Source: Patescibacteria group bacterium (GTDB taxonomy: Bacteria; Patescibacteriota; JABMPQ01; JAHIRA01). Taken from it: a stretch of DNA of 64,000 nt. Under the pieces are notes generated by a model that saw nothing but the letters and a program-made list of their open reading frames with translations, did no database searches and was not told the DNA's origin. The stretch's first letter is position 1. Every line of letters starts with the position of its first letter. Below are positions 12,300-40,948 of this stretch, piece by piece. The stretch lies in contig JAHISJ010000023.1 of the NCBI GenBank assembly GCA_018818205.1, positions 10,600 through 74,599 on the forward strand, in the 5' to 3' direction. A program made the translations under genes and the position numbers.

Positions 12300-12371
12300 C
12301 GGGATATAGCGCAGTGGTAGCGCGCATCGTTCGGGACGATGAGGTCGCCGGTTCAAATCCGGCTATCCCGA
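12300..12371 (+). tRNA. tRNA-Pro (anticodon CGG), CCA not encoded
   Basis: Acceptor CGGGAUA/UAUCCCG. D-stem GCGC. Anticodon stem CAUCG/CGAUG with loop UUCGGGA. T-arm GCCGG-UUCAAAU-CCGGC. Discriminator A. Confidence 0.85.
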
Positions 12372-15350: not shown

Positions 15351-15821
15351 ATGTCAAGACGAGCAAGAGCGCCAAAGAAAAAAAGGATTCCAGATTACAA
15401 GTTTAAGAATGAACTTGTGGCAAAGTTTATCAACCACATCATGAAGGATGGTAAAAAAGGTGCAGCAGAGCGCGTGGTGTATGGATCTTTTGATATTATT
15501 TCAGAAAAAGCAAAAAAGGAACCTGTTGAGGTTTTTGATCAAGCATTAAGAAACGTCGGTCCGTCACTCGAAGTCAAGGGTAGAAGAATTGGTGGTGCAA
15601 ACTATCAAATTCCTTATGAAGTTCATGGCGACAGGCGAGACACGCTTGCTATGCGCTGGATTATTGAAGCGTGTAGAAGAAAAAAAGGTAAGCCTATGGC
15701 TGAGTTTCTTGCAACTGAACTGATCGATGCTTCTGAAAAGCAAGGTTCAGCATACAAAAAACGTGAAGATGTACAGAGAATGGCAGAAGCAAATAAAGCG
15801 TTTGCTCATTTTGCGAGATAA
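15351..15821 (+). CDS. rpsG: 30S ribosomal protein S7
   Basis: KFINHIMKDGKKGAAERVVY..EVKGRRIGGANYQIPYEV..AMRWII; immediately follows rpsL. Confidence 0.95.
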   Translation: MSRRARAPKKKRIPDYKFKNELVAKFINHIMKDGKKGAAERVVYGSFDIISEKAKKEPVEVFDQALRNVGPSLEVKGRRIGGANYQIPYEVHGDRRDTLAMRWIIEACRRKKGKPMAEFLATELIDASEKQGSAYKKREDVQRMAEANKAFAHFAR

Positions 15822-15839
15822 AAGTACAAATAAAATAGT

Positions 15840-16202
15840 ATGGAAAAGAGCTTAGTAAGATTTTTAGTAATGGTAGTAGCCATTGCTTTTTGTATTAGTG
15901 GTACCACTGTACATGCACAAGATGATACACTCGCAGGGCTTCTCGCTGTTGGTGGAATCAGCCTTGTATCAATCATATGGATGCTGTGGATGGGGTTTGT
16001 ATTTTTGATGATGCTTGTAAATATTGCAGGAATGGTTTTTTGGATTTTTATGATTATAGACGCGGCAAAAAGAAAGTATAAAACAGAAAATGACCAGTTA
16101 CTGTGGATTCTTGTGGTGGTACTCACTGGGTGGATAGGTGCGCTCATCTATTACTTTATGGTCAAAAGAAAAGAAGATAAGCTCAATGAAGACAACAAGT
16201 AG
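15840..16202 (+). CDS. small membrane protein with signal peptide and PLDc_N-like motif (WILVVVLTGWIGALIYYF)
   Basis: Signal peptide, then two TM helices. The W...P/G..G..YY motif resembles the cardiolipin-synthase N-terminal-domain (PLDc_N) family. Low certainty. Confidence 0.4.
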   Translation: MEKSLVRFLVMVVAIAFCISGTTVHAQDDTLAGLLAVGGISLVSIIWMLWMGFVFLMMLVNIAGMVFWIFMIIDAAKRKYKTENDQLLWILVVVLTGWIGALIYYFMVKRKEDKLNEDNK

Positions 16203-17397
16203 AGACACAAAAAATATATTCATTGTTTTTGCCCTTCTTTTGGTAGTTGGTCTCTCAACTACCTTTTATTTTGTATGGAGAAATAATAAAATCGACTCAT
16301 ATACAGAGCCGCAAGATATGGTAGAGATTGACAATATCAACATCGTTCCTGAAAGCTCACAAGGTAAGATTGGTGACTATCTTCCGACGCCAACTAAAGT
16401 ATTCATTAAAGAAGATCAATATATATTCCTCGGTACGATAAACGGAGAAACATATATTCAACTTCAAAAAAGAAAAAACGATGAGTTTGATATGAGTATA
16501 CTCATCCAAGATCCAAATATAACTAGTGCCGTCATTGACACATCAGATGAACACATATTGTATACAACCAGTAAATCAGAGAACAACCTAAGTGGAGGGC
16601 TTTACAATGTAACGCTCAAAACGCAAAAAAAAGAACTTATTGCTGAAAACGTAGCAGGCGTTCAAACATACAGTGATGCTTCATTTTCTAAAGATGGAAA
16701 CAGTCTTGCAGCATTGCAAGAAAAAGAAGGGACAAAAGAACTGGTATTGTATGATGTGAACAAAAAAGTGTTTCAACGAGTAAAGCATTCAGATGAGTTG
16801 CCACTTACGGTTTCTCAGTATGAGTGGCTTCTGGATAATAGTATTCTTTTAGTTGGATACGAGGATGAGAAGGGGAAAGTATACAGGCTACATGATGCAA
16901 GCAGCGATGGGTTTGCTGAAGAACTTTCCTTCAACCAGTTTTTTGCTGAAAACGAAACGCCGCTTCTTGCTAAGCAATCAGCAGATGGTGAGAAAATTGC
17001 AGTGCTGTTTGAGCGAGTAATAGATGAAAATAAAAAGGAGCTCGGGCTCGCCGTTTTTAGAGGTGATTCGTTTATGGAGAGGAAGGATATAGAGCTTCCT
17101 GAGGGAAAGCATGTTGAGTATGCATGGGGAGATGGTGCGGAGCTCTACGCAACACTGGGAACTGATTTTTACAAAATAGATACTACTGCTGAGGAGCTTG
17201 CATTGTCAGAGAAACCACTTGTAGAAAATAGGGGATACCTCTATGCAATTCTAGATGATGTATTTGTATTTAGAAAAACATATCAGTTTGAAGATGATAC
17301 CTTGACAAAACTCATCTTTTATGATAAACTGAGGGAAGATGAAGCAGCATATGAGACTGAATTCAATTCATATATTACCCTTTTAGATATAACCTAA
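16186..17397 (+). CDS. membrane-anchored protein with PD40/TolB-like beta-propeller repeats. Start placed at the Met just before the TM helix.
   Basis: TM IFIVFALLLVVGLSTTFYFVW. Repeated S-x-DG-x-x-hydrophobic motifs (SFSKDGNSLAAL, QSADGEKIAVLF, FLGTINGETYIQL). Confidence 0.45.
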   Translation: MKTTSRDTKNIFIVFALLLVVGLSTTFYFVWRNNKIDSYTEPQDMVEIDNINIVPESSQGKIGDYLPTPTKVFIKEDQYIFLGTINGETYIQLQKRKNDEFDMSILIQDPNITSAVIDTSDEHILYTTSKSENNLSGGLYNVTLKTQKKELIAENVAGVQTYSDASFSKDGNSLAALQEKEGTKELVLYDVNKKVFQRVKHSDELPLTVSQYEWLLDNSILLVGYEDEKGKVYRLHDASSDGFAEELSFNQFFAENETPLLAKQSADGEKIAVLFERVIDENKKELGLAVFRGDSFMERKDIELPEGKHVEYAWGDGAELYATLGTDFYKIDTTAEELALSEKPLVENRGYLYAILDDVFVFRKTYQFEDDTLTKLIFYDKLREDEAAYETEFNSYITLLDIT

Positions 17398-17402
17398 AAA
17401 TT

Positions 17403-19400
17403 ATGCAAGAGTTACAACAGCAACCCCCAAGTTCTGAGCGTGAACAGCCAATCGATCCTGAGGATGATTTTGAAGAGCTCACGGTAGAAGACGTGCTCCC
17501 GGATATGTCCTCTGAAGCGGGTGCTGCAATTTTTATGGAAGAATTAAAACAAAGAATCGAGGAGGATGAATATGAAGCGGCAAAGCTTATCGAGGAAGCC
17601 ATGGCTGGTATTAATGAGGGGTACAGTCCAGATGACCCTGGGAAAAGTGAGAGACCGCTTAAAGAAGTATATGATGAGTACACAAAACTACAAAAGGCTT
17701 TAAAAGAAGCGGGAGTGTCCGTGGAACTTGATTTTGATTCAGGAGGTGAAGATCGAGCACGTGCCAACATTCTTCCTTCTCTTGCACGTACAATAAACGT
17801 TGAACTGGGAAGTTTAGAGATATATCTGGAAGAAGAAGCAACTATGGATTTTAAACAATTCCAGGAAGATTTTGTTCCTTTAATGCAAGAATCTAATACT
17901 CTTCGTGCAGAGGGTGAGAAGGCAAGGCCGGATCAAGTTAAATCGTTTATTAACAAAACAAAAGCAAAATATACTCAGTGGAGAAACGCAGTAAACAGCA
18001 TGCCGGAAGGACAAAAACGTGGCGAGCTTCTTATGGAAATTGGCCATTTAAACTCGCTGGCTCAAGAAATGGAGATGTTTGCAGATTCACTCGTGGTTTT
18101 GGAAGAAACAGATGTTGACAATCAGCGTTCTGCCGGTAAACAAGAAGGTCAGAGAGATATTGGAGCTGAACAAGAAAGAAATAAAGCGCTTGTAGATCGT
18201 CAAAAGAATATTGCTGGAGGTATCGTTGAAACTGTGCAACAGATTGAAAGGCTGGAAGATGTTATTAAAATCGAAGAAGAAAAAGAAAATCCTGACAAAA
18301 CGCATTTGACTACTTTGCGTGGCGATCTTCGTATTCAACAAATTAGGATGAGTCAGGGTGAGCAGCAAATGTTCAATGCAGAGTTCGATTTTGCGTCAGA
18401 AGATGATAAAGAAAATTTGCGAGAAGATCTCAAAGAAGAGCTTGCAGAACAAGTGGATCTGTCGCGTGAGATTTTTCATAATGCACTTATTGTTACCGGA
18501 GATAAGAAAAATTTTTCAACTAAAGAACTGAGTAAACATATTGCGGTTCTTTCTGAATCAGTAAACGCGTTAAATCATGATGAGTCTCGTCTAAATATTC
18601 GTGGGATGGTCACGGTAGATAAAAAGAATACGGCGCAAATTCTTAAAGCAGAGCGAGAAATACAGCGTATGGCTATGCAGCTTGAGGAACGATTGAATCT
18701 TAGAGAAGAGAACAAAAAGCTTTTGGAAAGAGAGGAGGAACTCATTCCAAAAGAATACAAAGAACAACAGCTCGCGGAAGTGATAGATCTGTCAGAAAGG
18801 ATAGAACAAAAGGTGAGAGATACATATGGTGAAGATGAACGATTAGATTCACTGATACGGCATGAGATCAACAAGATAGATATGGATGCGCATTTTAAGT
18901 CAAAGGAATTGGAAAAAGAGGTTGCTGTGCTACAAGCGGAATTTCAAAAATATGAAGATTTTATGGAAGATGGAGACATTAAGCTTGATATGAACAATTT
19001 ATTTTCAAACAATACATTCACAGCAACTCGTGAAAGGATTAGGTTTTGGAGGAAGATTGGAAAATTAGAACCAGAACCAGAAACTGAAAGTAAAGCTGTT
19101 GAGAAAACAGAGGAAACAGCGCCAGAGACTGAAAGTGATGTTGGCGAGGAAACCGAGGAAACAATATCAGAAACTGAAAGTGAGGTTGGTGAGGAAACCG
19201 AGGAAACAGCGCCAGAACCTGAAAGTTACAGAGAGTTTTCTGGCCTATCTGTAGATGAATTTGCCACTCGTTTAATTGCTGCTGAAAGTGAAATGTACGC
19301 AAAAAAAACTGAGCTCGAAAAACTCAATCTAGCGCGCGATTTCTGGAAAATACAGTATAGAGGAGTGGGTGATAGAAGAAAGACGAAAAAAGCCGCATAA
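17403..19400 (+). CDS. large acidic coiled-coil protein (665 aa) with C-terminal ETEE tandem repeats. Unknown function.
   Basis: Glu/Lys-rich with heptad-like segments. No P-loop or catalytic motif seen. DNA-level 45-bp tandem repeat at 19076-19226. Confidence 0.5.
   Translation: MQELQQQPPSSEREQPIDPEDDFEELTVEDVLPDMSSEAGAAIFMEELKQRIEEDEYEAAKLIEEAMAGINEGYSPDDPGKSERPLKEVYDEYTKLQKALKEAGVSVELDFDSGGEDRARANILPSLARTINVELGSLEIYLEEEATMDFKQFQEDFVPLMQESNTLRAEGEKARPDQVKSFINKTKAKYTQWRNAVNSMPEGQKRGELLMEIGHLNSLAQEMEMFADSLVVLEETDVDNQRSAGKQEGQRDIGAEQERNKALVDRQKNIAGGIVETVQQIERLEDVIKIEEEKENPDKTHLTTLRGDLRIQQIRMSQGEQQMFNAEFDFASEDDKENLREDLKEELAEQVDLSREIFHNALIVTGDKKNFSTKELSKHIAVLSESVNALNHDESRLNIRGMVTVDKKNTAQILKAEREIQRMAMQLEERLNLREENKKLLEREEELIPKEYKEQQLAEVIDLSERIEQKVRDTYGEDERLDSLIRHEINKIDMDAHFKSKELEKEVAVLQAEFQKYEDFMEDGDIKLDMNNLFSNNTFTATRERIRFWRKIGKLEPEPETESKAVEKTEETAPETESDVGEETEETISETESEVGEETEETAPEPESYREFSGLSVDEFATRLIAAESEMYAKKTELEKLNLARDFWKIQYRGVGDRRKTKKAA
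19076..19226 (+). repeat. intragenic 45-bp tandem repeat (about 3 copies) encoding ET(A/I)(P/S)ETES(D/E)VGEETE
   Basis: Units beginning near 19112, 19157 and 19202 are nearly identical at the DNA level. Confidence 0.7.
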
Positions 19401-19415
19401 AACAAAAAAGCAGAG

Positions 19416-19886
19416 TTATTGTTTAAACATCTCTGCTATAAGTTCTTGGTCAGCACCTTCTTTAACAAAAAATGGTCCAATGCGTTCTAATGTGCCATTG
19501 CGTAAGGTCCTTAACAAGTATATAAATTGTTTCCAATTACCGTGAAGTATAATGATTATTCCTCCTTTTCCATCTGATTCACGTTCGCAAATAAGATGTA
19601 ATGCCTGATCAGCTCTTGGGATAATATCAACACAATTACTAATACTTCTTGGTGACACAGCACCCATAACTGCTTGTAAGTGGAGAACCCCATTTTCAAA
19701 GTCTTCTATGACTATGAAATGGTTCCAGAAGAGATGATCATTTTTTTCAATTCTTATACGTTCCAATGTGTGGTCTTCGGGGGTTGAATTATCTTTCATC
19801 ATGAAGATGTAGTCGCAGATGAAGAAGCCAATGGCAGTACCAATTTTTTTAATGAGTGTATTAATATGATTGAAAAACTTTTTCAT
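19416..19886 (-). CDS. hypothetical protein (about 156 aa). Start set at ATG 19886, preceded by GGGAGG.
   Basis: Strong SD (rc of cctccc at 19891-19896) 6 nt before ATG. No domain recognised. Confidence 0.4.
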   Translation of the reverse strand: MKKFFNHINTLIKKIGTAIGFFICDYIFMMKDNSTPEDHTLERIRIEKNDHLFWNHFIVIEDFENGVLHLQAVMGAVSPRSISNCVDIIPRADQALHLICERESDGKGGIIIILHGNWKQFIYLLRTLRNGTLERIGPFFVKEGADQELIAEMFKQ

Positions 19887-20009
19887 TTTTCCTCCCAAAA
19901 AATGTGTACATTGTAACAATCGATTATACCCCAAAATATTCGCACGGTCAATAGTTCCTCTCTATCCAAAAGAATGGTACAATGACGTTATAACATAGTT
20001 TCAAAAAAT

Positions 20010-22175
20010 ATGGTTGAACAGCAATCAAAAAAAGAACAAAAAGCCCCTTCAAACGAAGCGTTTGCCGATCTTATTGAAAGCAATCCTCGTTTTTCAGAAG
20101 GAAAAGATGATGAGCAAGTGCAGTTTATCATTGAGGCTCTAGACATGGTTTCAGATGATGTCCTTTCACCAAAAGAGGGGCAAGAACCAAAGAGCCCCGC
20201 GGAAGTACTCGCAGCGTATCAGCTCATTTTTAATAAGGTGGTAGAGAGTCCACAGCATGAAGCGTTTTTGAGTAGCGGGATCTCTGGAAATGCAGTCTAT
20301 CAAATTAAAGAGGCTCCACCTCATTATGCCAAAGCACTCCAATCACTTGAAGATAGAATAGAAGATCAAAGGAGACTTATGATTGCGCTTAGAACCGGTC
20401 AAGATTCCTCAGAATATGACAAAACCACAGCAACGCATAATCTAAAAGTGATTGTTAAAAACCTACGTACCCGAGCACATGCCAAGCAGCCTAAAGATCG
20501 TATACAAGCAGATTCTTACGAGGTTGTGCTTGAACGTGAATTAGTAGCGAAACAGTTGGAAGATGCGGGGTATGTAGAGGCTCTAGATGATTCACTCTCC
20601 GTGAATGTACAAAAGTCACCATATGAGTATACTGTTCCCGTCGCTGAGTTAAACGATCTTCGCCTGGAAGAAGAGATTTTGGAGACGGCTGAAAGTAGGC
20701 AAAAAAAGACTACAACTGATGAGGAGTGGGACTTAGTTATGGATAATGCTGAGGCGGTGAAAAGAAAAGAGAAACTGCAAGAAAAGAGTGATGAACTTAA
20801 GACTGAGGGCCTTTCTGAGAATGAGCAAAAACAGTTAGAATCTGAAACTCGATATCTTGAGTATCTTATGGCACTCGAGGACGCGCGAGTAGAAGGAAAC
20901 AAGACACGAGTGCTTGCCCGTAAGTATGAAGCGAAGCGTGCTCCAATAAGATTTGAAGCGGATACGCGAATGGCCCGGCGTAAAGAAGCGGAAGAGGAAG
21001 TTCACAAAGTTATCCCCGGCAAGCAAGCTGAGAGAGAAGACTTTGGAGGAGAAGAAGCGGATGCCGAGAAAAAAAAGCGAGAAGCTGAGAGTGATGAAAC
21101 ACTAACAATGCAGAGCCAGGATGCGTTAAAGCCAATCCGGGAACATGTAGAAGGTGTGTATTCACGTGCAGAAAAATTTGCGCTGGCAACGGAGCACTTG
21201 ATTAATCAGGGTATGTATGAGGAGGTAACGTTTACTGAAGATGTACCCATGTTAGATAGAGAAGGAAATAGTGTTTTGGGAGCGGAGGGTAAAGAACTTA
21301 CCAAGCAGGAAAAAAGAGTGGAGCAAGCATATAAAGTTGAGCTAACCCCAGATGAAATTAAAACAATGATTGATTCATTGTCAAGACTCAGGGAGCGCAT
21401 GGTAAATGAGAAGGTGCGGGCAGAAGCGGGACTGGAATCATCAGTAGGTATTGTCGAACTTAATTCAGCGTATACCTTTGCAACAATGAATTTGGAGACA
21501 TCTCTTGGGAGAGTTGAGTCTCGACTCAAAAACCTACGACAAGAACTTGGAGCTTTAGAAGAAATCAAAAAGCTTGAATCAGGTGAGAAGGCGCTAGCCT
21601 ACGTACATCCAGAAATTTACCGGGAACTTCACGGCAAAGTAGAACGGCTTGTAAATTTTGATGAACTAAAAGAACATTTTGCTGAGCGTCATGCAGAATT
21701 AGCAAAGCGACTGGGCAAAAAATCACTTGAATCGTTTGGCGATGCATTCATTTTTGAAGAAGTGAAAAAGGATTTACTTAAAGAATCCAGAGAGCTCAAG
21801 CATGAGCTTGGAAGGATGCATATGGAAGTAGGAAGTTTAGAAAATGATAATAATGATGTTGATGATGAGTTACAATCATATGGAATTCAAGATGAGCCAG
21901 GATTACTCATAAACGTGTGGAGAAGATTCACAAAAGCCGATAAAGGAAGGAAGGAAACGCTTGCTCAAAAAAGAGAGGCTTTGCTTAAAGTAAAGCAAAA
22001 AAATACAGAAAAAATAAACATGATACGTTCACAAGCAGGTGAAGTTGCAGAAAAGGTAGCAATAAATATTGTAACGAGAACCGTAATAGAAGAAAAACTG
22101 AAGGTGCTCAAAGCCACAGGTGAGAGAAGTGAACAACGTAAACTGGGCAGTCTCTTTAAGCCAATAGAAGCCTAA
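20010..22175 (+). CDS. large acidic coiled-coil protein (721 aa). Unknown function.
   Basis: Glu/Lys/Arg-rich helical sequence. No NTP-binding or catalytic motifs recognised. Confidence 0.5.
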   Translation: MVEQQSKKEQKAPSNEAFADLIESNPRFSEGKDDEQVQFIIEALDMVSDDVLSPKEGQEPKSPAEVLAAYQLIFNKVVESPQHEAFLSSGISGNAVYQIKEAPPHYAKALQSLEDRIEDQRRLMIALRTGQDSSEYDKTTATHNLKVIVKNLRTRAHAKQPKDRIQADSYEVVLERELVAKQLEDAGYVEALDDSLSVNVQKSPYEYTVPVAELNDLRLEEEILETAESRQKKTTTDEEWDLVMDNAEAVKRKEKLQEKSDELKTEGLSENEQKQLESETRYLEYLMALEDARVEGNKTRVLARKYEAKRAPIRFEADTRMARRKEAEEEVHKVIPGKQAEREDFGGEEADAEKKKREAESDETLTMQSQDALKPIREHVEGVYSRAEKFALATEHLINQGMYEEVTFTEDVPMLDREGNSVLGAEGKELTKQEKRVEQAYKVELTPDEIKTMIDSLSRLRERMVNEKVRAEAGLESSVGIVELNSAYTFATMNLETSLGRVESRLKNLRQELGALEEIKKLESGEKALAYVHPEIYRELHGKVERLVNFDELKEHFAERHAELAKRLGKKSLESFGDAFIFEEVKKDLLKESRELKHELGRMHMEVGSLENDNNDVDDELQSYGIQDEPGLLINVWRRFTKADKGRKETLAQKREALLKVKQKNTEKINMIRSQAGEVAEKVAINIVTRTVIEEKLKVLKATGERSEQRKLGSLFKPIEA

Positions 22176-22201
22176 AAACAAACAAAAAAAGCGCTTAGAA
22201 T

Positions 22202-22756
22202 TCATTCTAGCGCTTCATTAACGAGGTCATCGAGCTCAACTCGAGTACCGTTTTTAATATCAAAAACAATTTTTTCAGGAACGTATTTTTCTGACCCAAT
22301 AAGCATCAAAAGGTCTCTTGGAGGCTTTTTTATGATATGAAGTTTCAGTAGCACCTCATTTTGAGGATCTAGCGAAAGCATATAATCTGTATCTTTGGGT
22401 GGAAGTGCTTCAAAAAAGACGTTTATTGGACTTAAAAGATCCCCACCTCCAAATTGTAACAAGTGGATAGCGCTAAGTGGGCTTTGTACTACGCCCCCTT
22501 GATTTGATGAAAGTCGTAAAATAACATACCCATCACTATCATTGCCGGCATACTTAATGACGCAATGTTGAAAGAAGATGATCGATAATGCCTTTCTTTC
22601 TTCCTTAGAAAAATAAGGTTTAATCCACCAGGGTTTAAAAAAACCAATGGTGCGTGCAATCCAGAGCCAGATCTTCCAAAGAATCCGGTTCCTTTTCATA
22701 ATTTTGTTCCAATTCTGAAATGAATCGGTGTAGTGTTTTGGCATTTCAGCCATCAT
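22202..22756 (-). CDS. hypothetical protein (184 aa) with a Trp-rich amphipathic N-terminus. Possibly a membrane-associated PH-like protein.
   Basis: ORF convergent with the 721-aa gene. An imperfect palindrome at 22186-22213 may be a bidirectional terminator. Confidence 0.4.
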   Translation of the reverse strand: MMAEMPKHYTDSFQNWNKIMKRNRILWKIWLWIARTIGFFKPWWIKPYFSKEERKALSIIFFQHCVIKYAGNDSDGYVILRLSSNQGGVVQSPLSAIHLLQFGGGDLLSPINVFFEALPPKDTDYMLSLDPQNEVLLKLHIIKKPPRDLLMLIGSEKYVPEKIVFDIKNGTRVELDDLVNEALE

Positions 22757-22841
22757 TCCTCCTAATGCAATTTTCAGCTTGTAACTATACCGTTTTTTTG
22801 GTATTGTGTCTAGAGCAATTTACAAAAAGTAATATAAGTCT

Positions 22842-23534
22842 ATGAATGCTAAAGTATGGATTGTCATTATTATTGCAGTCGTGCTTGCAGGTGCACTGTG
22901 TGGTTCTGCTGTCTATTTCTGGCAGGGCAATACATGTCGGGTAGAAAAAAATGAGCTTATAGGTCAAATGCAAGATCTAAATGCTGATGTTCACGCATGT
23001 GAAAAAGAGATAGATGAGGTAGCGATGATTCCAAAGAAAATGGATGATGTAAAAGTAGATGAACCAGCCTACAAAGACATTACGGTTATGGGTGGCTATA
23101 CCGCAGAGGTCCCAGACACCTGGAGCGTAACCACTATTAGTGAGAGTATAGGCGAGAATTCTCTCCCTGACTTACCTACTCAGGCAATCAGTCCTAGCGA
23201 TGTAAGTTTTGGTGATATTCATGCCGGTCAAGTTGACTTTTTCTACGCGCAAAATGACATTGTAGATACATTAATAGAAGAAGAGAAGAATCAAGACGAC
23301 TCAGTAAAAACGACGTGGACTACAGAAGACATTGCTGGGTTTGAAGCGCAGGTTGTTGAATATGACCCCAACTCGGACATAAAAGGTGCTGGGAGTAAAA
23401 AATATTTTGTTACATTAGATGGCGTTGATGTTTCTGGGTTTGATGTTAAAACTATGATGATGTATGTTCATGGAGATGATGATCCAGAATATCAAGCTGA
23501 GCTAGAAAAGTTTTTTCAAAGCATTACCAAATAG
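22842..23534 (+). CDS. N-terminally membrane-anchored acidic protein (230 aa). Unknown function.
   Basis: TM WIVIIIAVVLAGALCGSAVYFW followed by an acidic soluble domain. Confidence 0.45.
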   Translation: MNAKVWIVIIIAVVLAGALCGSAVYFWQGNTCRVEKNELIGQMQDLNADVHACEKEIDEVAMIPKKMDDVKVDEPAYKDITVMGGYTAEVPDTWSVTTISESIGENSLPDLPTQAISPSDVSFGDIHAGQVDFFYAQNDIVDTLIEEEKNQDDSVKTTWTTEDIAGFEAQVVEYDPNSDIKGAGSKKYFVTLDGVDVSGFDVKTMMMYVHGDDDPEYQAELEKFFQSITK

Positions 23535-23680
23535 CACAGCGTTCTTGCTGATATTTAGGGAGTAGCTTTCCACTTGTCTGTTTTGGTGAGTCATGTTTTA
23601 ATGTAAGAAACAAACTTGCGTATGCGCAAGGTATGTTTGGATTACTTATTATATTTAAATACAATTTGAGGATCAAATAA

Positions 23681-25771
23681 ATGCCTAGAGAGTATTCACT
23701 AGAGAAAACCAGAAATATTGGAATTATCGCACACATCGATGCCGGTAAAACTACCGTAACCGAGCGTATTTTGTTCTACACGGGGATTTCACATAAAATT
23801 GGTGAGGTCCATGAGGGTGAAGCAGTTATGGACTGGATGGAGCAGGAACGTGAGAGAGGAATCACTATCACCTCAGCTGCAACAACGTGTTTTTGGAAGG
23901 ATCATAGAATCAATATTATTGATACCCCCGGACATGTTGACTTTACCGTAGAAGTTGAGCGGTCACTTCGTGTACTCGATGGCGGTGTGGTGGTTTTTGA
24001 TGGTGTCGCAGGCGTTGAACCGCAGTCAGAAACGGTATGGCATCAGGCCGATAAATACAAGGTTCCTCGTATTTGTTTTATCAATAAAATGGACAGAACC
24101 GGCGCCGATTTTTTTGCAGCGCTTGATTCTATTCATGAGAGACTTTCAAAAAGTGCAGTACCGATTCAGCTTCCCATTGGCGCAGAAGATCAGTTTGGTG
24201 GGGTGATTGACCTTATCAATGAGAAGAAATTGGTTTTTGAGGGGGAAATGGGTGCGATAATAAAAGAAGAAGAAGTCCCGGAAGACATGAAGGATCAAGT
24301 AAAAGAGTACCGGGACAAAATGGTAGAAAAGATTGTTGAGCAAGATGAAGCACTCATGGAGAAGTATCTTGAAGGAACTGAGGTAACACCAGAGGAGCTT
24401 ATAGAAGCACTAAGAAAAGGCGTTCTCTCGCTTGATATTATTCCTGTTATGTGCGGAACTGCGCTTAAAAATCAAGGTGTTCAACCGGTTTTGGATATGG
24501 TTATTAAACTGTTGCCGTCCCCGCTCGATGTACCTCCAGTTAAGGGCGAAGATCCAAAAGATCCGGAAAAAGAACTTGAGAGAAAAGCAGATGATAACGA
24601 GCCATTCGCTGGCCTCGCGTTTAAGGTTGCATCCGATCCATATGTGGGCAAACTTGTCTTCTTTAGAGTCTACTCAGGCATGCTTTCCTCTGGATCATAT
24701 GTTCTAAACAGCGCTACCGGAAACAAAGAGCGTGTTGGAAGAATCGTACGTATGCATGCAGATAAAAGAGAAGAAGTGACAGAAATGTACGCGGGTGATA
24801 TTGCAGCAATCGTAGGGCTTAAAGACACTACAACCGGTGACACATTATGTGATCAGGATAGTCCAATAATTCTTGAAAAAATAACCTTTCCAGAACCCGT
24901 TATCTCTATTGCCATTGAGCCAAAAACTAAAGCGGATCAAGAAAAGATGGGTAACGCGCTCAAAACACTTTCAGAAGAGGATCCAACATTTAGGGTCAGG
25001 TCAGATGAAGAGACTGGACAAACAATCATTGCCGGTATGGGAGAACTCCATCTGGATATCATTGTTGACAGAATGAGCAGAGAGTTTAAAGTTGAAGCAA
25101 ATATCGGAAAGCCTCAGGTTGCTTACAGAGAAACAATAAAGAAAAGTTCAGAAGCGGAAGGAAAGTACATCAAGCAGTCCGGTGGTCGTGGGCAATATGG
25201 CCATGTGTGGCTGAGAGTTGAGCCAAATGAGGTCGGTAAAGGATTTGAATTTGGAAATGAGATAAAAGGTGGTGCAATCCCACAGGAGTTTATTCCTCCG
25301 GTCGAGAAGGGTGTTAGAGAAACACTAGATAACGGTGTTCTCGCTGGGTATCCACTCGTAGACATCAAGGCAACGCTTTTTGATGGTTCGTTCCATGATG
25401 TTGACTCGTCCGAGGCAGCATTTAAAATCGCCGGTTCCATGGCGCTTAAAGCAGGCTGTCTTAAAGCAGATCCTGTTATACTCGAGCCGGTTATGAAAGT
25501 CGAGGTATTAACCCCAGAAACGTACATGGGTGATATCGTTGGCGACTTAAACTCCAAGCGCGCAAAAATTGACGAGATGACTGACAGAGGTCAAATGAAG
25601 GTCGTTAAGTGTATGGTGCCGCTTGCATCAATGTTTGGATATGCAACGTCACTCAGATCTATGACCCAAGGCCGTGGAAGCTATATCATGGAGTTTGATC
25701 ATTATGAAGAGGTGCCAAAGAACGTCGCAAAAGAGATCATCGAAGTTAAAACCGGCGTAGCTGCAAAATAA
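23681..25771 (+). CDS. fusA: translation elongation factor G
   Basis: G1 [10 protein letters not shown]3 [13 protein letters not shown]. 696 aa; domains II-V recognisable. Confidence 0.95.
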
Positions 25772-25785
25772 AACCATTTGATCTC

Positions 25786-25820
25786 TACGTAGGGGCGCCC
25801 CTTGTGGGCGCCCTTTTTTT
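25786..25820 (+). terminator. fusA terminator formed by copy 1 of a GC-rich palindrome (TACGTAGGGGCGCCCCTTGTGGGCGCCC + T7)
   Basis: 9-bp GC stem, 5-nt loop, TTTTTTT. Related copies at 26881-26917 and 30351-30380. Confidence 0.7.
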
Positions 25821-25880
25821 GTGCACGCAAAATCCCATAAAAACAATATATACGGGCGGAATTCATGCTATTTAAATCAC

Positions 25881-26315
25881 TCAATCTTTCTCAAACATCT
25901 CCAAAAACTCCACATACCCCTCTTTCTCCAAATCCTCTTTAGAAATAAATCGCAAAGCTGCAGAATTAACACAATAGCGCTTACCGTCTGGTTCTGGCCC
26001 ATCATCAAATACATGCCCCAAATGCGAGGCACCTTTTTTACTTTTCACTTCTGTTCGCTCCATACCGAGCTTCGTATCTTTTTTTTCGATAGCACATTCG
26101 CTACTTACCGTCTGAGAAAAACTGGGCCAACCGGTTCCAGAATCAAACTTATCTTTTGAACTAAATAATGGTTCACCGGTAGCCACATCAACATAAATAC
26201 CTTCTTGCTTGTTGTCCCAGTATTCATTGTTAAATGCAGGCTCCGTGCCTTCTTCCTGTGTCACTGAGTATTGGAGGGGAGTCAACTTCTTTCTTAAATC
26301 TTTTTTGTCATTCAT
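25881..26315 (-). CDS. msrB: peptide methionine (R)-S-oxide reductase MsrB
   Basis: GTGWPSF; the catalytic [11 protein letters not shown]; [10 protein letters not shown]. Confidence 0.9.
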
Positions 26316-26832
26316 GGCTTTTAATATATTCCTCTCTCCCTGATCCTTTTTTATATGCTAAATAGTGCTCTTGCCTCTTTTTGTAGTAATCTTGATGTTC
26401 TTCCTCAGCTTCATAAAACGGTTTTTCGGGAAGAATCTTTGTGACAATCGGACTATCATATTTACTTGAGCGTTCTAAATCGGCTTTAGATTCTTTTGCA
26501 TACTTTTTTTGTTCATCGTCAGTGTAAAAGATTACCGTCTCATACTGCGAGCCTCTATCAGCAAATTGCCCTCCTTTGTCAGTCGGATTAATGTTTCCCC
26601 AAAAACGATTCAGTAGTTCAGGATACATTATAACTTCTGGGTCGTAGATCACTTTAGTTGCTTCAATATGCCCGGTAGTTCCAGTGGAAACTTCTTCATA
26701 CGTTGGATTTTCTGTATTGCCACCGGTATACCCATTTATAGCTTCAATAACGCCATCAAGCTCTTCCATAGCGGCTTCAATACACCAAAAGCAGCCTCCG
26801 GCGAAGATTGCGTGTTTGTAGTTGTCTTTCAT
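26308..26832 (-). CDS. msrA: peptide methionine (S)-S-oxide reductase MsrA
   Basis: N-terminal [14 protein letters not shown] (GCFWG/C active site); [22 protein letters not shown]. Confidence 0.9.
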
Positions 26833-26880
26833 GTAACAATTTTACCATATCTACACGTACATGCATATTTGCACAAAACA

Positions 26881-26917
26881 CCACGTAGGGGCGCCCCTTG
26901 TGGGCGCCCCTACGTGG
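26881..26917. repeat. GC-rich perfect palindrome, copy 2 (CCACGTAGGGGCGCCCC-TTG-T-GGGCGCCCCTACGTGG)
   Basis: 16-bp arms. Located about 50 bp upstream of the msrA start, in an otherwise AT-rich intergenic region. Confidence 0.8.
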
Positions 26918-26967
26918 GGATGTTGTAGGCACAGTATAATAATGCTTTTTGATAAATATTTTTAACT

Positions 26968-26996
26968 GTCATCCCCGTGGAGGCGGGGATCCATCT
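26968..26996. repeat. left 29-bp terminal inverted repeat (GTCATCCCCGTGGAGGCGGGGATCCATCT). Itself contains a 7-bp hairpin.
   Basis: 28/29 match to the reverse complement of 28322-28350. Confidence 0.75.
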
Positions 26997-27096
26997 GCTT
27001 GTTGTGAATATTGGTGGTTTGACAGTACGATGTAAAATAGATATACTTACGTAGCAAAATTACATAAAAAACAAAAATAAGCAGCGCTGGCGCTGT

Positions 27097-28308
27097 TTGT
27101 TTTATTTGATACTAATAATGAACAAAACACGCGAAACATTTGGAGAAATTCTAATTATTTTAAGCTCAGCTTTAGTAGGATTGTCTTTTCAAGAAAATAA
27201 AATCCTTGCCATCTTTTTTTTGATTGCATTGATTTTTGGTTTATATTTGAAGGTCTTTTATAACAAAATAAATACATGCTTAGCTTCTCTTCGAAGGAGA
27301 ACAGACAAATCAATTGTTGTTGGAATCTTGAATGAAATTGATTGGAGCGAATTTAGTAAATTTGGAAGAAGCTGGTCTCCTTATTCCTATGAAGATTGGA
27401 AGGAAGGATTTGAAAGAAGGAATACAATTGTAAAACCGATTAACAAAATAACAGCTTTTCGTCTTAATCGTTGTGATATAGTTTTAAATCCATATAGTGG
27501 CGTATACCCCGAAAGTGATGCAGAATCATTGGAGAGCTTACATCTATTTTTTGATTATGTCTCTCGTGGTGGTGTATTTGTGAACGTTGGTGATATTCCC
27601 GGATATTATGAATACAGCAAACCCCTATATAAACCATACAATTCAGTGCTTATGCAAAATGGAAGATACGAAGTTAATCATGCTCCGTTTGTAAATAATT
27701 TAAAGATTAGAGTCCATCTTGTGGGCGAGAACGATCAATTTATAGTGCCTAGAGATAGTAATGACTATGAAGTAGAGCGATATATTGTGGTAAAAGAGGG
27801 AAAAGAACAGCAGGATTGTATTAGTGAAAACTATATCCCATGGGGGGAAGGTTGTTATGAAAGAAAAAAATATGATTTAGGTGTAAAAGAATTTCCTGAA
27901 GGAGAATATTCTTCTTGTTTTAGAAAAAAATATGGAGAGGGTTCTTTTATTATTTCATTAATGCATATGGGAAAAGCAGAACAAAAAGATGATGAGGATG
28001 CCAAAGATAAGCATCCAAACAAAAGTGTAAAAAATATTCTTATTATAAATGCCATTAGGAGTGTTATATCAAAAGAAAAAAATTTCTTTGGTAGTATTTA
28101 TCGTTATATTAAAGGTAAGATTAGTATTATATTTAAACATATAGGTATAGTCTCATTTTTTGGCAAGATGGCTTTTTTAGTAGTGATTACATGGCTCATT
28201 ATAGTAACATTTGTATTATTTTATTTTAGGTTTTATCAGTGTCCATATCAAAAAAATGGCAAAGAAAACAATTATTATATTGATTCAGTCACAATCAAGA
28301 TCAGGTAA
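27097..28308 (+). CDS. hypothetical membrane protein (403 aa), very AT-rich codon usage (K/N/I/Y/F-rich). N- and C-terminal TM segments flank a Tyr/Glu-rich soluble domain.
   Basis: ORF. TM helices ILIILSSALVGL, AIFFLIALIFGLYL, FLVVITWLIIVTFVLFYF. No catalytic motif recognised. Confidence 0.45.
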   Translation: MFYLILIMNKTRETFGEILIILSSALVGLSFQENKILAIFFLIALIFGLYLKVFYNKINTCLASLRRRTDKSIVVGILNEIDWSEFSKFGRSWSPYSYEDWKEGFERRNTIVKPINKITAFRLNRCDIVLNPYSGVYPESDAESLESLHLFFDYVSRGGVFVNVGDIPGYYEYSKPLYKPYNSVLMQNGRYEVNHAPFVNNLKIRVHLVGENDQFIVPRDSNDYEVERYIVVKEGKEQQDCISENYIPWGEGCYERKKYDLGVKEFPEGEYSSCFRKKYGEGSFIISLMHMGKAEQKDDEDAKDKHPNKSVKNILIINAIRSVISKEKNFFGSIYRYIKGKISIIFKHIGIVSFFGKMAFLVVITWLIIVTFVLFYFRFYQCPYQKNGKENNYYIDSVTIKIR

Positions 28309-28321
28309 TTTTGATTTGAGA

Positions 28322-28350
28322 AGATGGATCCCCGCCTCCACAGGGATGAC
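28322..28350. repeat. right 29-bp terminal inverted repeat (AGATGGATCCCCGCCTCCACAGGGATGAC)
   Basis: Reverse complement equals the left repeat with one mismatch. Confidence 0.75.
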
Positions 28351-28476
28351 AAAAACAAAGACAATCATAAATGAATCGTACCCGACTGCATGGTCATTCC
28401 ATATTCACAATACAAAAAACCCTCCACGCATACATGCACGGAGGGGATCTCGTTTTTAGCATTAATCTGAAAAAAA

Positions 28477-30249
28477 TCAGAAGGTGTAGAAGACGTTTAA
28501 GGAAAAGTAGGTAAGTTTCAAAGTGGCAAGAGGATTAGGATTCTCCAGGCTATAGTAGGTGTACATGCCTGGTTTCCATTTGAGCGAAAACCCAAATGTG
28601 CTCGGTCTCATATCAAACTTCTCAGAAAGATACCATCCTCCTCGCAGTTCAACATAGATGCCGTGCAAGGAATGCCCCATGGCTTGTGTCACAGACAGAT
28701 TATAATATTTTACTGTCTTTGATATGCCATAAAGGTTAGTATGCCATCCCATTGCGGCAACAAAGAAGAAGTCTGATTTATGTCGTTTGCCACTAAGGTA
28801 AAAATCCATGCCAAAGAGAATGTGCAAATCGAACCCATTTGGATTAAACATATTCATTCCAACGGTCACTTCAAGCGATCCACCAATAGGAGCAATTTTT
28901 CCTTTAACCCGTGTTATTCCACCAATAGTAAGGGAAGATTTCCTGGAAATCTTTGCAAAGTCAGTTGTAAATCCAAGCGTGGGCCCAAACTGTACAATGA
29001 CATTGCGGCTGGATTTCTTTTTTGAAGTCACTTTTCTCCATGTCACTTTCTTTGTTAGTGGCCATGGTGGCGGGTATCTGTTATACAGCTTTTCAGCAAT
29101 TTTTCTACCAGTTGGAAGTGGGTTTTTAACGAATTTTTTTCTACCTACTTTACTTAAAAAGCTTTTAACATGGCTTACAACACCGCCTCCAAATACTTGA
29201 TGACTAAGGCCAAGTTTGTAAACTATTTTTTGGTAGTCCTCTCTTCTTCTTGGGTAGGTTCCTGAGAAGGAAATTCCACCAGACAAACCTGAATGCGATC
29301 CAGTTGAGCTGAGTGTGCGCCTAACCTCGATACCATATGAGGCACCAAATCTTTTATCTGGCACACAAGATATCAAAAGGAAAAGCGGTATGTTTTTCTT
29401 GGAACATTCCGTATAAAACTTTCGAACTTCTGGATTACTTTTGTCAAAGCGACTTTGGCTATCCGAAGTCGCACGTATAGAAAGAGTAGATTGTATTTTA
29501 ACAACTGCACCAAGATTAAGCGATTCTTTAAGTGAAACAACAATAGCATCTCGAACGAGCTTACAAAATCGTCCCTTCATCTCATATGTACCAATGCCAA
29601 TCAGCTTTGTCACAGTTCGTGCAGCAGGCTTCCAAGGCAATGGATACCGCTTACGCAGAATATCTGCAACTTTTTTTGGCCAGGTAGTATTATTCTTCTT
29701 CCAAAGCTGTGCACGATTACTTTTGGCATAATACGCATTAATCTTGTATTGAAGTGAATCACTTTCGAAGCCAACCCCATATAATTGTACAAGCTTTAAG
29801 TAAGGGTCGTTATAATTCAAAGAAAACGTAATACCGCCTCCATTGTACGCACGAAGCCCGGTATTATTTACAGGATGATAATTTTGAATAACTTGTACAA
29901 ATTCGTAGTAGAAATGAACTGTACTTTGGCTATAAGGGGTACATCCAAGTAACAAGAAAAGCTTAACTTTCTTTTTTATAGCTTCTTTGTGAAACTTCTT
30001 TACAACATTGGGAGCAATCTTGTTATAATCAGGCACCAAACTTTTTGTCGTGTGACTAAGCGTAAGGTATGAATTGAATCTCACTACCGATCCCTTTTTA
30101 AGCATCGCTTTAAGTGATTCAACAACCAAGTCGCGACTCAGTTTGCACAATGTGCCCTTCATCGCATAACCACCAACGCCAATAACGGCGCTTCCAAATA
30201 CATTCTGTGGCAGCAGCAAAAGCGCTACCAAAAACAACATTTTTCTCAC
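28477..30249 (-). CDS. secreted protein (590 aa): signal peptide, two tandem copies of a roughly 90-aa domain, and a C-terminal beta-rich region ending in aromatic Phe (OMP-like beta-signal)
   Basis: Signal peptide MRKMLFLVALLLLPQNVFGSA. Duplicated GxGxY-MKG-x-CKL-x-RD-x-VV-SLK...LFLL-x-C-x-P blocks. C-terminus ...LKLTYFSLNVFYTF. Confidence 0.45.
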   Translation of the reverse strand: MRKMLFLVALLLLPQNVFGSAVIGVGGYAMKGTLCKLSRDLVVESLKAMLKKGSVVRFNSYLTLSHTTKSLVPDYNKIAPNVVKKFHKEAIKKKVKLFLLLGCTPYSQSTVHFYYEFVQVIQNYHPVNNTGLRAYNGGGITFSLNYNDPYLKLVQLYGVGFESDSLQYKINAYYAKSNRAQLWKKNNTTWPKKVADILRKRYPLPWKPAARTVTKLIGIGTYEMKGRFCKLVRDAIVVSLKESLNLGAVVKIQSTLSIRATSDSQSRFDKSNPEVRKFYTECSKKNIPLFLLISCVPDKRFGASYGIEVRRTLSSTGSHSGLSGGISFSGTYPRRREDYQKIVYKLGLSHQVFGGGVVSHVKSFLSKVGRKKFVKNPLPTGRKIAEKLYNRYPPPWPLTKKVTWRKVTSKKKSSRNVIVQFGPTLGFTTDFAKISRKSSLTIGGITRVKGKIAPIGGSLEVTVGMNMFNPNGFDLHILFGMDFYLSGKRHKSDFFFVAAMGWHTNLYGISKTVKYYNLSVTQAMGHSLHGIYVELRGGWYLSEKFDMRPSTFGFSLKWKPGMYTYYSLENPNPLATLKLTYFSLNVFYTF

Positions 30250-30350
30250 AATTTCCTCCTTTTGTGAATGAAAAAAAGACCATAAGAATGCGTGTCACCA
30301 TAGCATAAAACCCAGACCACGTCAACCCAAAAAGGACAATATTATGATTC

Positions 30351-30380
30351 GTAGGGGCGTCCCTTGTGGACGCCCTCTAT
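30351..30380. repeat. GC-rich palindrome, copy 3 (GTAGGGGCGTCCC-TTGT-GGACGCCCTCTA), degenerate
   Basis: Shares core GTAGGGGCGyCCCTTGTGGrCGCCC with copies 1 and 2. Located upstream of the start of the minus-strand 590-aa gene and upstream of tuf. Confidence 0.65.
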
Positions 30381-30612
30381 CCACACCCTCAAAAAATCCA
30401 ATGTAAGGGAATAACAGGCAATCGTGTCTATTTTTTCTTTTATCCAAGCCAAAAAAAAGTATCTCCAAGCTCAAAAGGGTATACGGAAATAAAATACTTG
30501 CATGATTTACAAGAACTTGTTATACTCATGCCTAGTGTTACGCTAGGTTGATTCTAGCGGGACTTAATGTTCAACATAATTTTATCTATCAATAGTATTA
30601 AATCAAAAAAAT

Positions 30613-31803
30613 ATGGCAGAAAAATTCGAACGTACAAAACCCCATCTCAACGTGGGTACCATTGGACACGTTGATCATGGTAAAACTACACTGACTGCGG
30701 CAATCCTTAAAGTTATTGGTGCTTCAGGCGTTGGTAAAGCACAAGATAAAGATGTCAGTCAAATCGATAATGCTCCAGAAGAAAAAGAGCGTGGTATTAC
30801 TATTGCGACTTCTCACTGTGAGTATGAGACAGAGAAGAGACACTATGCACATGTTGACTGCCCAGGACATGCTGATTATGTCAAGAACATGATCACCGGT
30901 GCTGCTCAAATGGACGGTGCTATTTTAGTGGTATCTGCAGCTGATGGCCCTATGCCACAAACACGTGAACACATTCTACTTGCTAAACAAATTGGTGTTC
31001 CCTCAATTGTTGTTTTCTTAAATAAGGTTGATCAGGTTGATGATCCAGAGCTTATTGAGCTAGTTGAAGAAGAAGTACGTGATCTTCTTAAAAAATATGA
31101 ATTCCCAGGTGATGAAATTCCTATCATTAAAGGGTCAGCACTCAAAGCACTTGAGAATCCTTCAGGTGATGATGCAAAGCCTGTTTTAGAACTTCTTGAG
31201 GCACTTGATACCTACATTCCTGAGCCTGAGAGAGATATTGACAAGCCATTCCTTATGCCAATTGAGGACATCTTCTCAATAGAAGGTCGAGGTACAGTGG
31301 TAACCGGTAGAATTGATCGTGGTGTAGTTAACGTTAATGACGAGGTAGAAATTGTCGGTCTGCGCCCAACGCAAAAGACGATTGTTACCGGAATTGAGAT
31401 GTTCAACAAGTCACTCGATGAAGGTAAGGCTGGCGATAACGCTGGTATACTCGTTAGAGGTACTAAAAAAGAAGAAGTTGAGCGTGGACAAGTTCTTGCA
31501 AAGCCAGGGACAATCACTCCTCACTCTGAGTTTGAAGCAGAGGTGTATATTCTTACTAAAGAAGAAGGTGGTAGACATACTGCATTTGCAAAGGGTTACA
31601 AGCCGCAGTTTTACGTCAGAACAACAGACGTAACTGGTGAAGTTGAGCTTCCAGAAGGTACAGAAATGGTTATGCCAGGTGACACTGCAAATCTAAAGGT
31701 TAAGCTGGCAAAAGAAGTTGCCATGGAAGACGGTATGCGCTTTGCTATTCGTGAAGGTGGTAGAACCGTTGGTGCGGGAGTTGTTTTAAAGATCATTAAA
31801 TAA
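30613..31803 (+). CDS. tuf: translation elongation factor Tu
   Basis: [51 protein letters not shown]. Confidence 0.95.
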
Positions 31804-31814
31804 TTAAACAATCA

Positions 31815-31852
31815 AAAGAGGAACGTAACGTACGTTCCTCTTTGATAGTTTT
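31815..31852 (+). terminator. intrinsic terminator/attenuator after tuf (AAAGAGGAACG-loop-CGTTCCTCTTT + T-rich)
   Basis: 11-bp perfect stem followed by GATAGTTTTT. Confidence 0.55.
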
Positions 31853-31863
31853 TGCAAACATAC

Positions 31864-32301
31864 ATGGTTAAAGCGAGTACTAAACAAGTGAAGAAAAAAG
31901 TGGAGAAGAAATCAGAGAAGAAATCTGATGCCAAAAAGGCCATTCGAGGCTCTGAGGAGCCTTCAGGCTCTCGAAAAGAGAAAAAGACTCCAGAAGAAAA
32001 GCAACGCATCAGAATAAAGATCAAAGCGTACGATCATAAGCTTATTGATCAATCTGCTGCACAAATTGTTGACACTGCAGAAAGAACAGGTGCACGAGTG
32101 TGTGGTCCTGTGCCGCTTCCGACAGAGAGACACAGAGAGACCGTTATCAGATCTCCCTTTGCTCATAAAGATTCGCGTGAACAGTATGAAATCCGCGTTC
32201 ACAAGCGTTTAGTAGACATTGTTGACTCTAATCAGAAGACAATCGAATCTTTAACAGAGCTAAATCTGCCAGCAGGGGTTGATATTGAAATAAAGATGTA
32301 G
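31864..32301 (+). CDS. rpsJ: 30S ribosomal protein S10 with an approximately 45-aa Lys-rich N-terminal extension. A TTG at 31852 is an alternative start.
   Basis: Core [54 protein letters not shown] matches the S10 fold. N-terminal [16 protein letters not shown] tail. Confidence 0.9.
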
Positions 32302-40258: not shown

Positions 40259-40948
40259 ATGGCAGATAGACGACGAAAATTTAGACGGAAGCCAAAATCT
40301 GAGTTTGATCAGAAGCTTGTTGATATTCGCCGCGTTACCCGCGTTGTCGCAGGTGGTAGACGTATGCGTTTTAGAGTGACCATTGTTCTTGGTGATAAGA
40401 AAAGACGCGTAGGTGCTGGAACTGCAAAGGGTAATGATGTCAGCTCAGCAATCGAAAAGGCAATTAAACAAGCAAAGAAGAACATGGTAACGGTGCCAGT
40501 TACAGAAAATGGCACTATCCCTCACGAGGTAATGGTAGAAGAAGGATCAGCCAGACTCTTTTTGAAGCCGGCGTTTCCTGGAACTGGTATTATTGCCGGT
40601 GGTTCTGTCCGTTCAGTCCTTGAACTCGCGGGTGTACGAAACGTGTTTAGTAAGATTTATGGCACGAACAATAAGCTCAATAATGTTAACGCAACAGTTA
40701 AGGCTCTTTCTGAAATGAGAAGTAAAGAGAAAGTATTTAAACTTAGAGGGAAAGAGTTTAAAGAAAAAACCGATGCTTCTGTAAAAGAAGAAGTAAAGAA
40801 AGTTCCTGAGGAAGAGAAGAAGCAGGTGTTAAAGAAACCATCAACAGTAGAAAAGAAGCCAGCTGTTCAAGGTTCTGTCCTCGACTCCGAGGTCGCTCAG
40901 ACTCGAGGAGAGGAGCCTGCCCCTAAGGCAAAAGATAAGCAGAAATAA
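40259..40948 (+). CDS. rpsE: 30S ribosomal protein S5 with an approximately 60-aa Lys/Glu-rich C-terminal extension
   Basis: VDIRRVTRVVAGGRRMRFRVTIVLGDKKRRVGAGTAKGNDVSSAIEKA.., GTGIIAGGSVRSVLELAGV. Confidence 0.9.
   Translation: MADRRRKFRRKPKSEFDQKLVDIRRVTRVVAGGRRMRFRVTIVLGDKKRRVGAGTAKGNDVSSAIEKAIKQAKKNMVTVPVTENGTIPHEVMVEEGSARLFLKPAFPGTGIIAGGSVRSVLELAGVRNVFSKIYGTNNKLNNVNATVKALSEMRSKEKVFKLRGKEFKEKTDASVKEEVKKVPEEEKKQVLKKPSTVEKKPAVQGSVLDSEVAQTRGEEPAPKAKDKQK

Follow-up and report, generated by a model that had tools for sequence, protein, structure and literature searches.

Does a bacterium of the Candidate Phyla Radiation (CPR), which the literature treats as a monoderm clade, encode a protein that carries the C-terminal address tag of an outer-membrane β-barrel? 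This question is raised by a gene on a contig of 318,406 nt assigned to a Patescibacteria group bacterium (JAHISJ010000023.1, assembly GCA_018818205.1), of which we analyzed a stretch of 64,000 nucleotides (contig positions 10,600 to 74,599 of the forward strand, termed the window in the following; positions refer to the window unless stated otherwise). The gene is located between fusA and tuf, occupies positions 28477–30249 on the minus strand and encodes a protein of 590 aa, for which an initial annotation had proposed a signal peptide, an internal duplication and a terminus of the outer-membrane protein (OMP) type. Based on the analyses described here, it is a secreted multi-domain protein belonging to no known family, whose terminus, unusually similar to those of OMPs, would not be expected in this lineage, and it does not constitute a demonstrated anomaly. 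The reading that we favor, with a confidence that stands about midway between belief and disbelief, is that of a cationic protein of the cell envelope or surface, restricted to this CPR lineage, the C-terminal all-β domain of which is not embedded in a membrane.

The two features that bear most directly on the question lie at the ends of the protein. The N-terminus (aa 1–19/21, positions 30187–30249, minus strand) has the features of a Sec-type signal peptide, MRKMLFLVALLLLPQNVFG|SA, in which a basic n-region (MRK) is followed by an h-region of ten residues (MLFLVALLLL) and by PQNVFG preceding SA, with small residues at positions -3 and -1. These features, assessed with a heuristic and not with a dedicated predictor, agree with the earlier assignment, and a gene for signal peptidase I (Peptidase_S26) is present on the same contig. 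At the other end, aa 406–590 (positions 28480–29034, minus strand) form a domain predicted to be all-β on the basis of composition, alternation and a low-confidence structural model. It is unrelated to the repeats described below, lacks Cys, and consists of 10.6% Gly and 16.7% Phe, Trp and Tyr. Long amphipathic runs are found at residues 453–467, 473–487, 494–506, 531–541 and 582–590. For the domain as a whole, the difference between the lag-2 and lag-1 hydrophobic autocorrelations reaches z = 3.1–3.2, a value attained by only 3 of 2000 shuffled sequences, and the hydrophobic moment is high at 180 degrees (z = 3.2) and not at 100 degrees (z = -0.9), so that the periodicity is of period 2 and not helical. 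No other segment of the protein shows period-2 alternation at this level, and the β-type alternation ascribed earlier to approximately the last 200 residues is thus confirmed and assigned to aa 406–590.

The last ten residues, YFSLNVFYTF (positions 28480–28509, minus strand), were compared with control proteins and with the published motif. They end in Phe590, carry hydrophobic residues at positions -3 (Tyr588), -5 (Val586), -7 (Leu584) and -9 (Phe582) and contain a Y-x-F dyad. The published β-signal motif reads ζ-x-G-x-x-[aromatic/hydrophobic]-x-[aromatic/hydrophobic], with LGLGYRF as the consensus in a survey. When SLNVFYTF is aligned with it, agreement is seen at the polar position and at the two aromatic/hydrophobic ones, but Asn stands in place of Gly and Thr in place of the basic residue at -2. 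The initial annotation had called the terminus a canonical aromatic signal for the β-barrel assembly machinery (BAM); the Phe terminus and the spacing of the hydrophobic residues bear this out, but the word canonical does not apply to a sequence that lacks both the Gly and the basic residue at -2. Many genuine OMPs deviate from the consensus, and the survey itself cautions that partial matches to the β-signal may reflect strand alternation alone.

To what extent is such a terminus specific for OMPs? As controls we used about 2,700 proteins from seven regions of Escherichia coli K-12 (containing 12 known outer-membrane barrels), 160 loci of diverse bacteria and the AT-rich Clostridium plasmid pSOL1, and defined the signature as an aromatic last residue together with hydrophobic residues at -3, -5, -7 and -9, signal peptides being called by heuristic. 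The bare signature occurred in 12 of 1585 proteins, half of which (six) were E. coli OMPs. Combined with a signal peptide it selected seven control proteins, namely OmpX, OmpF, OmpW, PagP, an Alginate_exp barrel, a TonB-dependent receptor and one unannotated protein from a locus of the diderm Aminicenantes; the first six are confirmed outer-membrane barrels. The combination was found in none of ~120 signal-peptide-like proteins of pSOL1 or CPR-like loci, neither in the 36 such proteins of pSOL1 nor in the 15 of the CPR-labelled loci. Within the window, the bare signature has a local false positive when a signal peptide is not required: an inner-membrane peptidase of the M50 family (14167–14799) ends in YFLSLFIPF.

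With regard to the host, the NCBI label, gene content and phylogeny point in the same direction. The gene for ribosomal protein S5 (40259–40948) is followed after 8 nt by that for L15 (40956–41402), and the L30 gene is absent between them. Absence of L30 is a hallmark of the CPR. In a neighbor-joining tree of 14 concatenated ribosomal proteins, a rough tree calculated without bootstrap, the window groups with all CPR-labelled loci; identities are only 52–54%, and the lineage is therefore a deep one. Taken together, label, missing L30 and tree support the CPR-type host that had been considered from the start. The window further encodes FtsA, FtsZ, ComEC, EF-G, EF-Tu, the S10-spc ribosomal operon, SecY and glycolytic enzymes. 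Genes for Omp85, Lpt, Lpx or Tol proteins do not occur in the approximately 74 kb that were read, i.e., the 64-kb window and a 10-kb flank of the 318-kb contig. This flank, just outside the window, contains a wall-polymer ligase of the LCP family (LytR_cpsA_psr) and the signal peptidase I mentioned above (contig positions 78.9–81.1 kb), which is consistent with a Gram-positive-type wall bearing anionic polymers. Cryo-transmission electron microscopy of groundwater CPR bacteria showed an S-layer but no outer membrane, with cells attached to Gram-negative hosts (He et al., preprint), and OmpM systems have been reported as lost in the clade comprising Chloroflexi, CPR and Dormibacteraeota. What is known about the envelope of CPR bacteria rests on few lineages.

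Between signal peptide and C-terminal domain, self-alignment revealed two paralogous modules, comprising aa 22–215 (module 1, positions 29605–30186, minus strand) and aa 216–405 (module 2, positions 29035–29604, minus strand). Residues 22–214 and 216–403 share 33% identity (92.8 bits, E = 3e-28), and the Smith-Waterman score of 236 compares with 31 ± 5 for shuffled sequences (z = 41). The internal duplication reported earlier is therefore real, but its length had been underestimated: each copy comprises about 195 instead of 90 aa. Identity between the modules amounts to 0.55, 0.60 and 0.34 at codon positions 1, 2 and 3, respectively. Since the first two positions are kept and the third is not, the duplication must be old and under protein-level selection, which also argues for a real gene. 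In module 1, a β-α-β-α-β part (aa 22–105, with Cys35 and Cys103) is followed by a Gly- and aromatic-rich β part, a helix and an RYPxPW motif, a secondary structure that was read only from the low-confidence full-length AlphaFold2 model. Cys35 and Cys103 align with Cys229 and Cys295 of module 2, and conservation of this pair suggests that one disulfide may be formed per module. Judged by eye, the N-terminal part of the repeat had appeared as a candidate periplasmic α/β domain of the CsgG/LpoB/TolB-N type; this assignment was rejected as none of the hhalign comparisons of the repeat profile with CsgG, LpoB and TolB of E. coli reached a probability of 1%, the sole match being a trivial LLxGC string. 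The mature protein has an isoelectric point (pI) of about 10.1, whereas all other proteins of the window without a family have an acidic pI and lack a cleavable signal peptide; none of them shares its combination of export signal, basic character, duplicated modules and OMP-style ending.

Relatives of the protein were sought widely. Neither Pfam nor NCBIfam, searched with the whole protein and by domain, yielded a match at E ≤ 10, and this includes all OMP families as well as the POTRA, Bac_surface_Ag, ShlB, autotransporter, SLH and lectin domains of Pfam. The whole protein, the two-repeat profile and the C-terminal domain (E ≤ 10) returned nothing when 5.8 billion clusters were searched by word index, and an exhaustive phmmer search of 1.84 billion representatives was likewise empty. 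Among PDB sequences there was no match to the C-terminal domain, and the two-repeat profile found only a Homer EVH1 domain at E ~0.1, i.e., noise. PHROGs, PADLOC, IMG/VR and PLSDB contained no match to the protein, tblastn detected no relative in 160 related loci chosen by means of EF-Tu and EF-G as anchors, paralogs do not occur within the window, and in the nearest genomes available (EF-G 73–74% identical) no counterpart is found downstream of fusA. The protein did not even retrieve itself because the representative of its 90%-identity cluster is a 53-aa fragment from ENA (MCISDFENFAEEFLPKNAWDYYSSGANEE...) to which it is unrelated. Representative-based protein libraries can thus hide sequences of this kind.

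For an orphan encoded on the minority strand, the possibility that the open reading frame (ORF) is no gene at all has to be considered, and the lack of homologs and the orientation are indeed the points in its favor. It is contradicted by the reading frame and by its surroundings to such an extent that we give it virtually no credence. The coding sequence (590 codons and a stop codon, positions 28477–30249, minus strand; ORF listing, repeat and codon analysis) starts with GTG and is preceded at a distance of 5 nt by a Shine-Dalgarno sequence, AGGAGG (30255–30260, minus strand, read directly). In the deposited annotation (MBU1119019.1, hypothetical protein, 587 aa) the start is placed at ATG 30240, three codons downstream of GTG 30249. 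We prefer the GTG because it is separated from AGGAGG by 5 nt as compared to 14 nt for the ATG, and because a start at the ATG would remove the basic MRK n-region of the signal peptide. A consensus scan also picked out a promoter-like sequence some 50 nt ahead of the start codon, TTGACG-17 nt-TATGGT with a TG preceding the -10 hexamer (30297–30325, minus strand); it is no more than a pattern match, and sites of this kind are not more numerous in the region than shuffling would predict. An intrinsic terminator with an 11-bp stem (seven G-C pairs), a 4-nt loop and a T-run begins 32 nt past the stop codon (28410–28445, minus strand). As the gene points away from tuf and towards the neighboring ORF at 27097–28308, it forms a monocistronic unit. 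In addition to this strong ribosome-binding site and terminator, a canonical signal peptide and the duplication that is visible at the protein level with its codon-position asymmetry, there is no competing long ORF on the opposite strand, and GC skew, positive across the window, turns slightly negative in the bin containing the gene, as is expected with coding on the minus strand. GC content at third codon positions (GC3) is 0.36 and lies within one standard deviation of the mean of the window genes (0.34 ± 0.04). Read together, these signals mark 28477–30249 as a genuine gene with predicted separate transcription. The 364-nt intergenic region between the gene and tuf also contains an 8-bp GC-rich hairpin at ~30355–30375 (GGGCGTCC-ACAAG-GGACGCCC, minus-strand reading), for which neither an adjoining T-run nor an Rfam match was found.

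Attempts to establish the fold of the C-terminal domain by modeling were of limited use. AlphaFold2 without alignment returned a pLDDT of 31 for the full-length protein and of 34 for aa 405–590, the latter all-β and with no trustworthy fold, and a Foldseek search with this low-confidence tail model gave TM-scores of 0.1–0.2, values at which a fold search is meaningless. Several generic barrel measures were tried and discarded. A score based on strand count rated helical membrane proteins and fimbrial subunits as highly as OMPs; coverage by alternation runs combined with a filter for transmembrane helices enriched OMPs only modestly and left the protein in the overlap zone; the number of long runs (≥13 aa), a measure chosen post hoc, is not OMP-specific, since E. 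coli OMPs usually have only one or two of them.

How can an OMP-like terminus in a CPR bacterium then be explained? For a lineage-specific, cationic surface protein speak a CPR host whose imaged relatives lack an outer membrane, the LCP ligase encoded nearby, the missing link to any OMP family and a β-signal devoid of Gly and of the basic residue at -2. According to this reading, the protein would be exported by the Sec system and cleaved by signal peptidase I, each of the two modules would be held by one disulfide between the conserved Cys residues, and the strongly cationic mature protein (pI ~10) would either be retained at the cell surface by binding anionic polymers of the wall or the S-layer or attach to a host cell surface. 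The C-terminal domain would adopt a non-membrane β structure, either a sandwich or a small closed barrel, that could serve in anchoring, oligomerization or binding. Its OMP-like ending would reflect how terminal amphipathic strands generally look, with Phe as the last residue by coincidence, and would not serve the CPR cell itself as an address tag for BAM. We infer the surface function solely from charge, predicted export and architecture. Several observations weigh against this explanation. There was no confirmed false positive of signal peptide plus signature among ~245 signal-peptide-like controls, which corresponds to a 95% upper bound on the false-positive rate of ~1–2% per secreted protein; the terminal signature is therefore a genuinely informative cue, and a chance match of signal peptide and OMP-style terminus is possible yet uncommon. 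Three alternation runs in the C-terminal domain reach 13–15 residues, as seen in ~1% of controls, and exceed typical sandwich strands. Furthermore, the AlphaFold models (pLDDT 31–34) are uninformative and give no positive support for a soluble fold, and it is charge alone from which the proposed binding is deduced.

The most serious competitor is a true transmembrane β-barrel of approximately 8–10 strands formed by aa 406–590 behind the soluble modules and residing either in an unrecognized outer lipid layer of the CPR cell or in the outer membrane of a Gram-negative host. The high OMP specificity that signal peptide and C-terminal signature displayed in the controls, the significant period-2 alternation with no helical signal, the long amphipathic runs in a Gly- and aromatic-rich, Cys-free domain and the all-β character of the low-confidence AlphaFold model would all be accounted for, and the attachment of CPR cells to Gram-negative hosts as well as the small number of lineages from which CPR envelopes are known leave room for it. 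On the other hand, imaged CPR cells do not have an outer membrane, no Omp85, Lpt or Lpx gene is present in the 74 kb, searches as lenient as E ≤ 10 recovered no OMP family, the β-signal has neither its Gly nor its basic residue at -2, all loops of such a barrel would be short, and two generic barrel scores did not set the protein apart from non-OMPs. When the signature is given a likelihood ratio of ~15–40, discounted for the missing Gly and the absence of an OMP-family match, and is combined with a prior of ~1–2% for a secreted CPR protein being a membrane barrel, a true barrel is therefore unlikely, while keeping an appreciable share of the probability. A more specific and, in our view, improbable scenario is that a CPR episymbiont that itself lacks an outer membrane exports a porin-like barrel with a BAM-type signal, which would be inserted into the outer membrane of a Gram-negative host or jam its assembly machinery and thereby open a conduit or cause a lesion where the two cells are in contact. 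By analogy with lectin-like protein antibiotics (Llps) and darobactin, one might also imagine a secreted effector that mimics the β-signal, its Y-x-F strand docking on strand 1 of BamA of the Gram-negative host and either blocking BAM or being assembled by it. Llps are likewise secreted, consist of one or two tandem domains and bind BamA strand 1 through a C-terminal [aromatic/hydrophobic]-x-[aromatic/hydrophobic] dyad that is usually not accompanied by Gly, and attachment of CPR cells to Gram-negative hosts would provide the opportunity; we nevertheless consider such mimicry highly improbable, as neither a lectin nor any other Llp domain is present, the dyad ends a structured β domain of 185 aa, and nothing supports a particular host or delivery across its outer membrane. 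Least probable among these explanations for the terminus is a functionless relic of a diderm OMP gene acquired by horizontal transfer. Apart from the OMP-like terminus, only the orientation opposite to most neighboring genes could be adduced for it, but no homolog occurs in 1.84 billion representatives, 5.8 billion clusters, plasmids or viral contigs, the frame is intact and equipped with good expression signals, the repeats are under protein-level selection, and a native-like GC3 (0.36 vs. 0.34 ± 0.04) is found in a gene embedded between fusA and tuf. The foreign diderm origin that the initial annotation had offered as an alternative is not upheld by these data: no organism provided a homolog, base composition is native-like, and the flanking translation factor genes are part of a contig of 318 kb.

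The genomic neighborhood shows further peculiarities. The str operon (15351–31803) is interrupted by family-less genes: the gene for S7 (15351–15821) and that for EF-G, fusA (23681–25771), are separated by four ORFs without Pfam family (16138–17397, 17403–19400, 20010–22175 and 22842–23534), the products of which are acidic with a pI of 4–5. Directly after the S7 gene, an ORF of 120 aa (15840–16202) has a signal-peptide-like N-terminus (MEKSLVRFLVMVVAIAFCISGTTVHA|QDD). Downstream of fusA follow msrB/msrA on the minus strand, a membrane ORF (27097–28308), the gene studied here and tuf (30613–31803). The membrane ORF, convergent neighbor of the latter gene, encodes an orphan protein of 403 aa with hydrophobic segments at its N- and C-terminus that has no match in Pfam, PHROGs or PADLOC and no relative in the 160 related loci. 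The ORF for ribosomal protein S10 (31852–32301, 149 aa) carries a Lys-rich N-terminal extension of ~45 residues in front of the conserved core, near which there is no alternative start. Two genes for tRNA-Pro with the anticodons GGG and CGG are located at 11546–11621 and 12300–12371, approximately 700 nt apart.

The distinction between these explanations matters, as CPR bacteria are regarded as monoderm and the route by which such cells obtain nutrients from a host is an open question in the field. Should the C-terminal domain be a true membrane barrel with a BAM-like signal, then some CPR lineages either have an unrecognized outer lipid layer or target the outer membrane or the BAM of a Gram-negative host. 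If the tail is an ordinary soluble β domain, the protein is one more lineage-specific surface protein, and the rule of the terminal Phe, although a strong indicator of OMPs, would not suffice on its own.

The protein can be compared with several established systems. With BAM-dependent OMPs such as OmpX, OmpW, OmpF and PagP it shares the Sec signal peptide and a predicted all-β, Gly- and aromatic-rich, Cys-free domain with period-2 alternation, as well as the terminal Phe, the Y-x-F dyad and the hydrophobic residues at -3, -5, -7 and -9, a signature that the same four proteins displayed in our controls. Unlike classical OMPs, it does not match any hidden Markov model of an OMP family, lacks the Gly of the β-signal and the basic residue at -2, is basic (pI ~10) and stems from a lineage considered to be devoid of an outer membrane, its barrel fold being putative. 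Its overall organization, i.e., a signal peptide, repeated soluble modules and a C-terminal β domain ending in an aromatic residue, resembles that of Omp85/TpsB proteins, autotransporters and SLH-porins of the OmpM type, and TpsB proteins are also similar in total size (~590 aa). However, the repeats of ~195 aa contrast with POTRA units of ~75 aa, none of the domains typical of these proteins (POTRA, Bac_surface_Ag, ShlB, autotransporter, SLH) was matched, and a barrel of 16 strands would require a longer β domain than the ~185 aa present here. Llps (LlpA/LlpB, L-type pyocins), which to our knowledge occur only in Pseudomonas, are comparable in being secreted, in having tandemly duplicated domains and in ending with an [aromatic/hydrophobic]-x-[aromatic/hydrophobic] dyad without Gly. 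They differ in that they possess lectin domains and in that their dyad is located on a short tail and followed by a cap residue, whereas here it closes a large β domain; the aromatic residue of the dyad is the terminal residue (Phe590) in the protein studied here and never in Llps. Finally, the protein resembles lineage-specific secreted or surface orphans of CPR bacteria, with which it has in common the lack of a family, an export signal and a gene inserted among core genes, in a window that holds many other family-less proteins.

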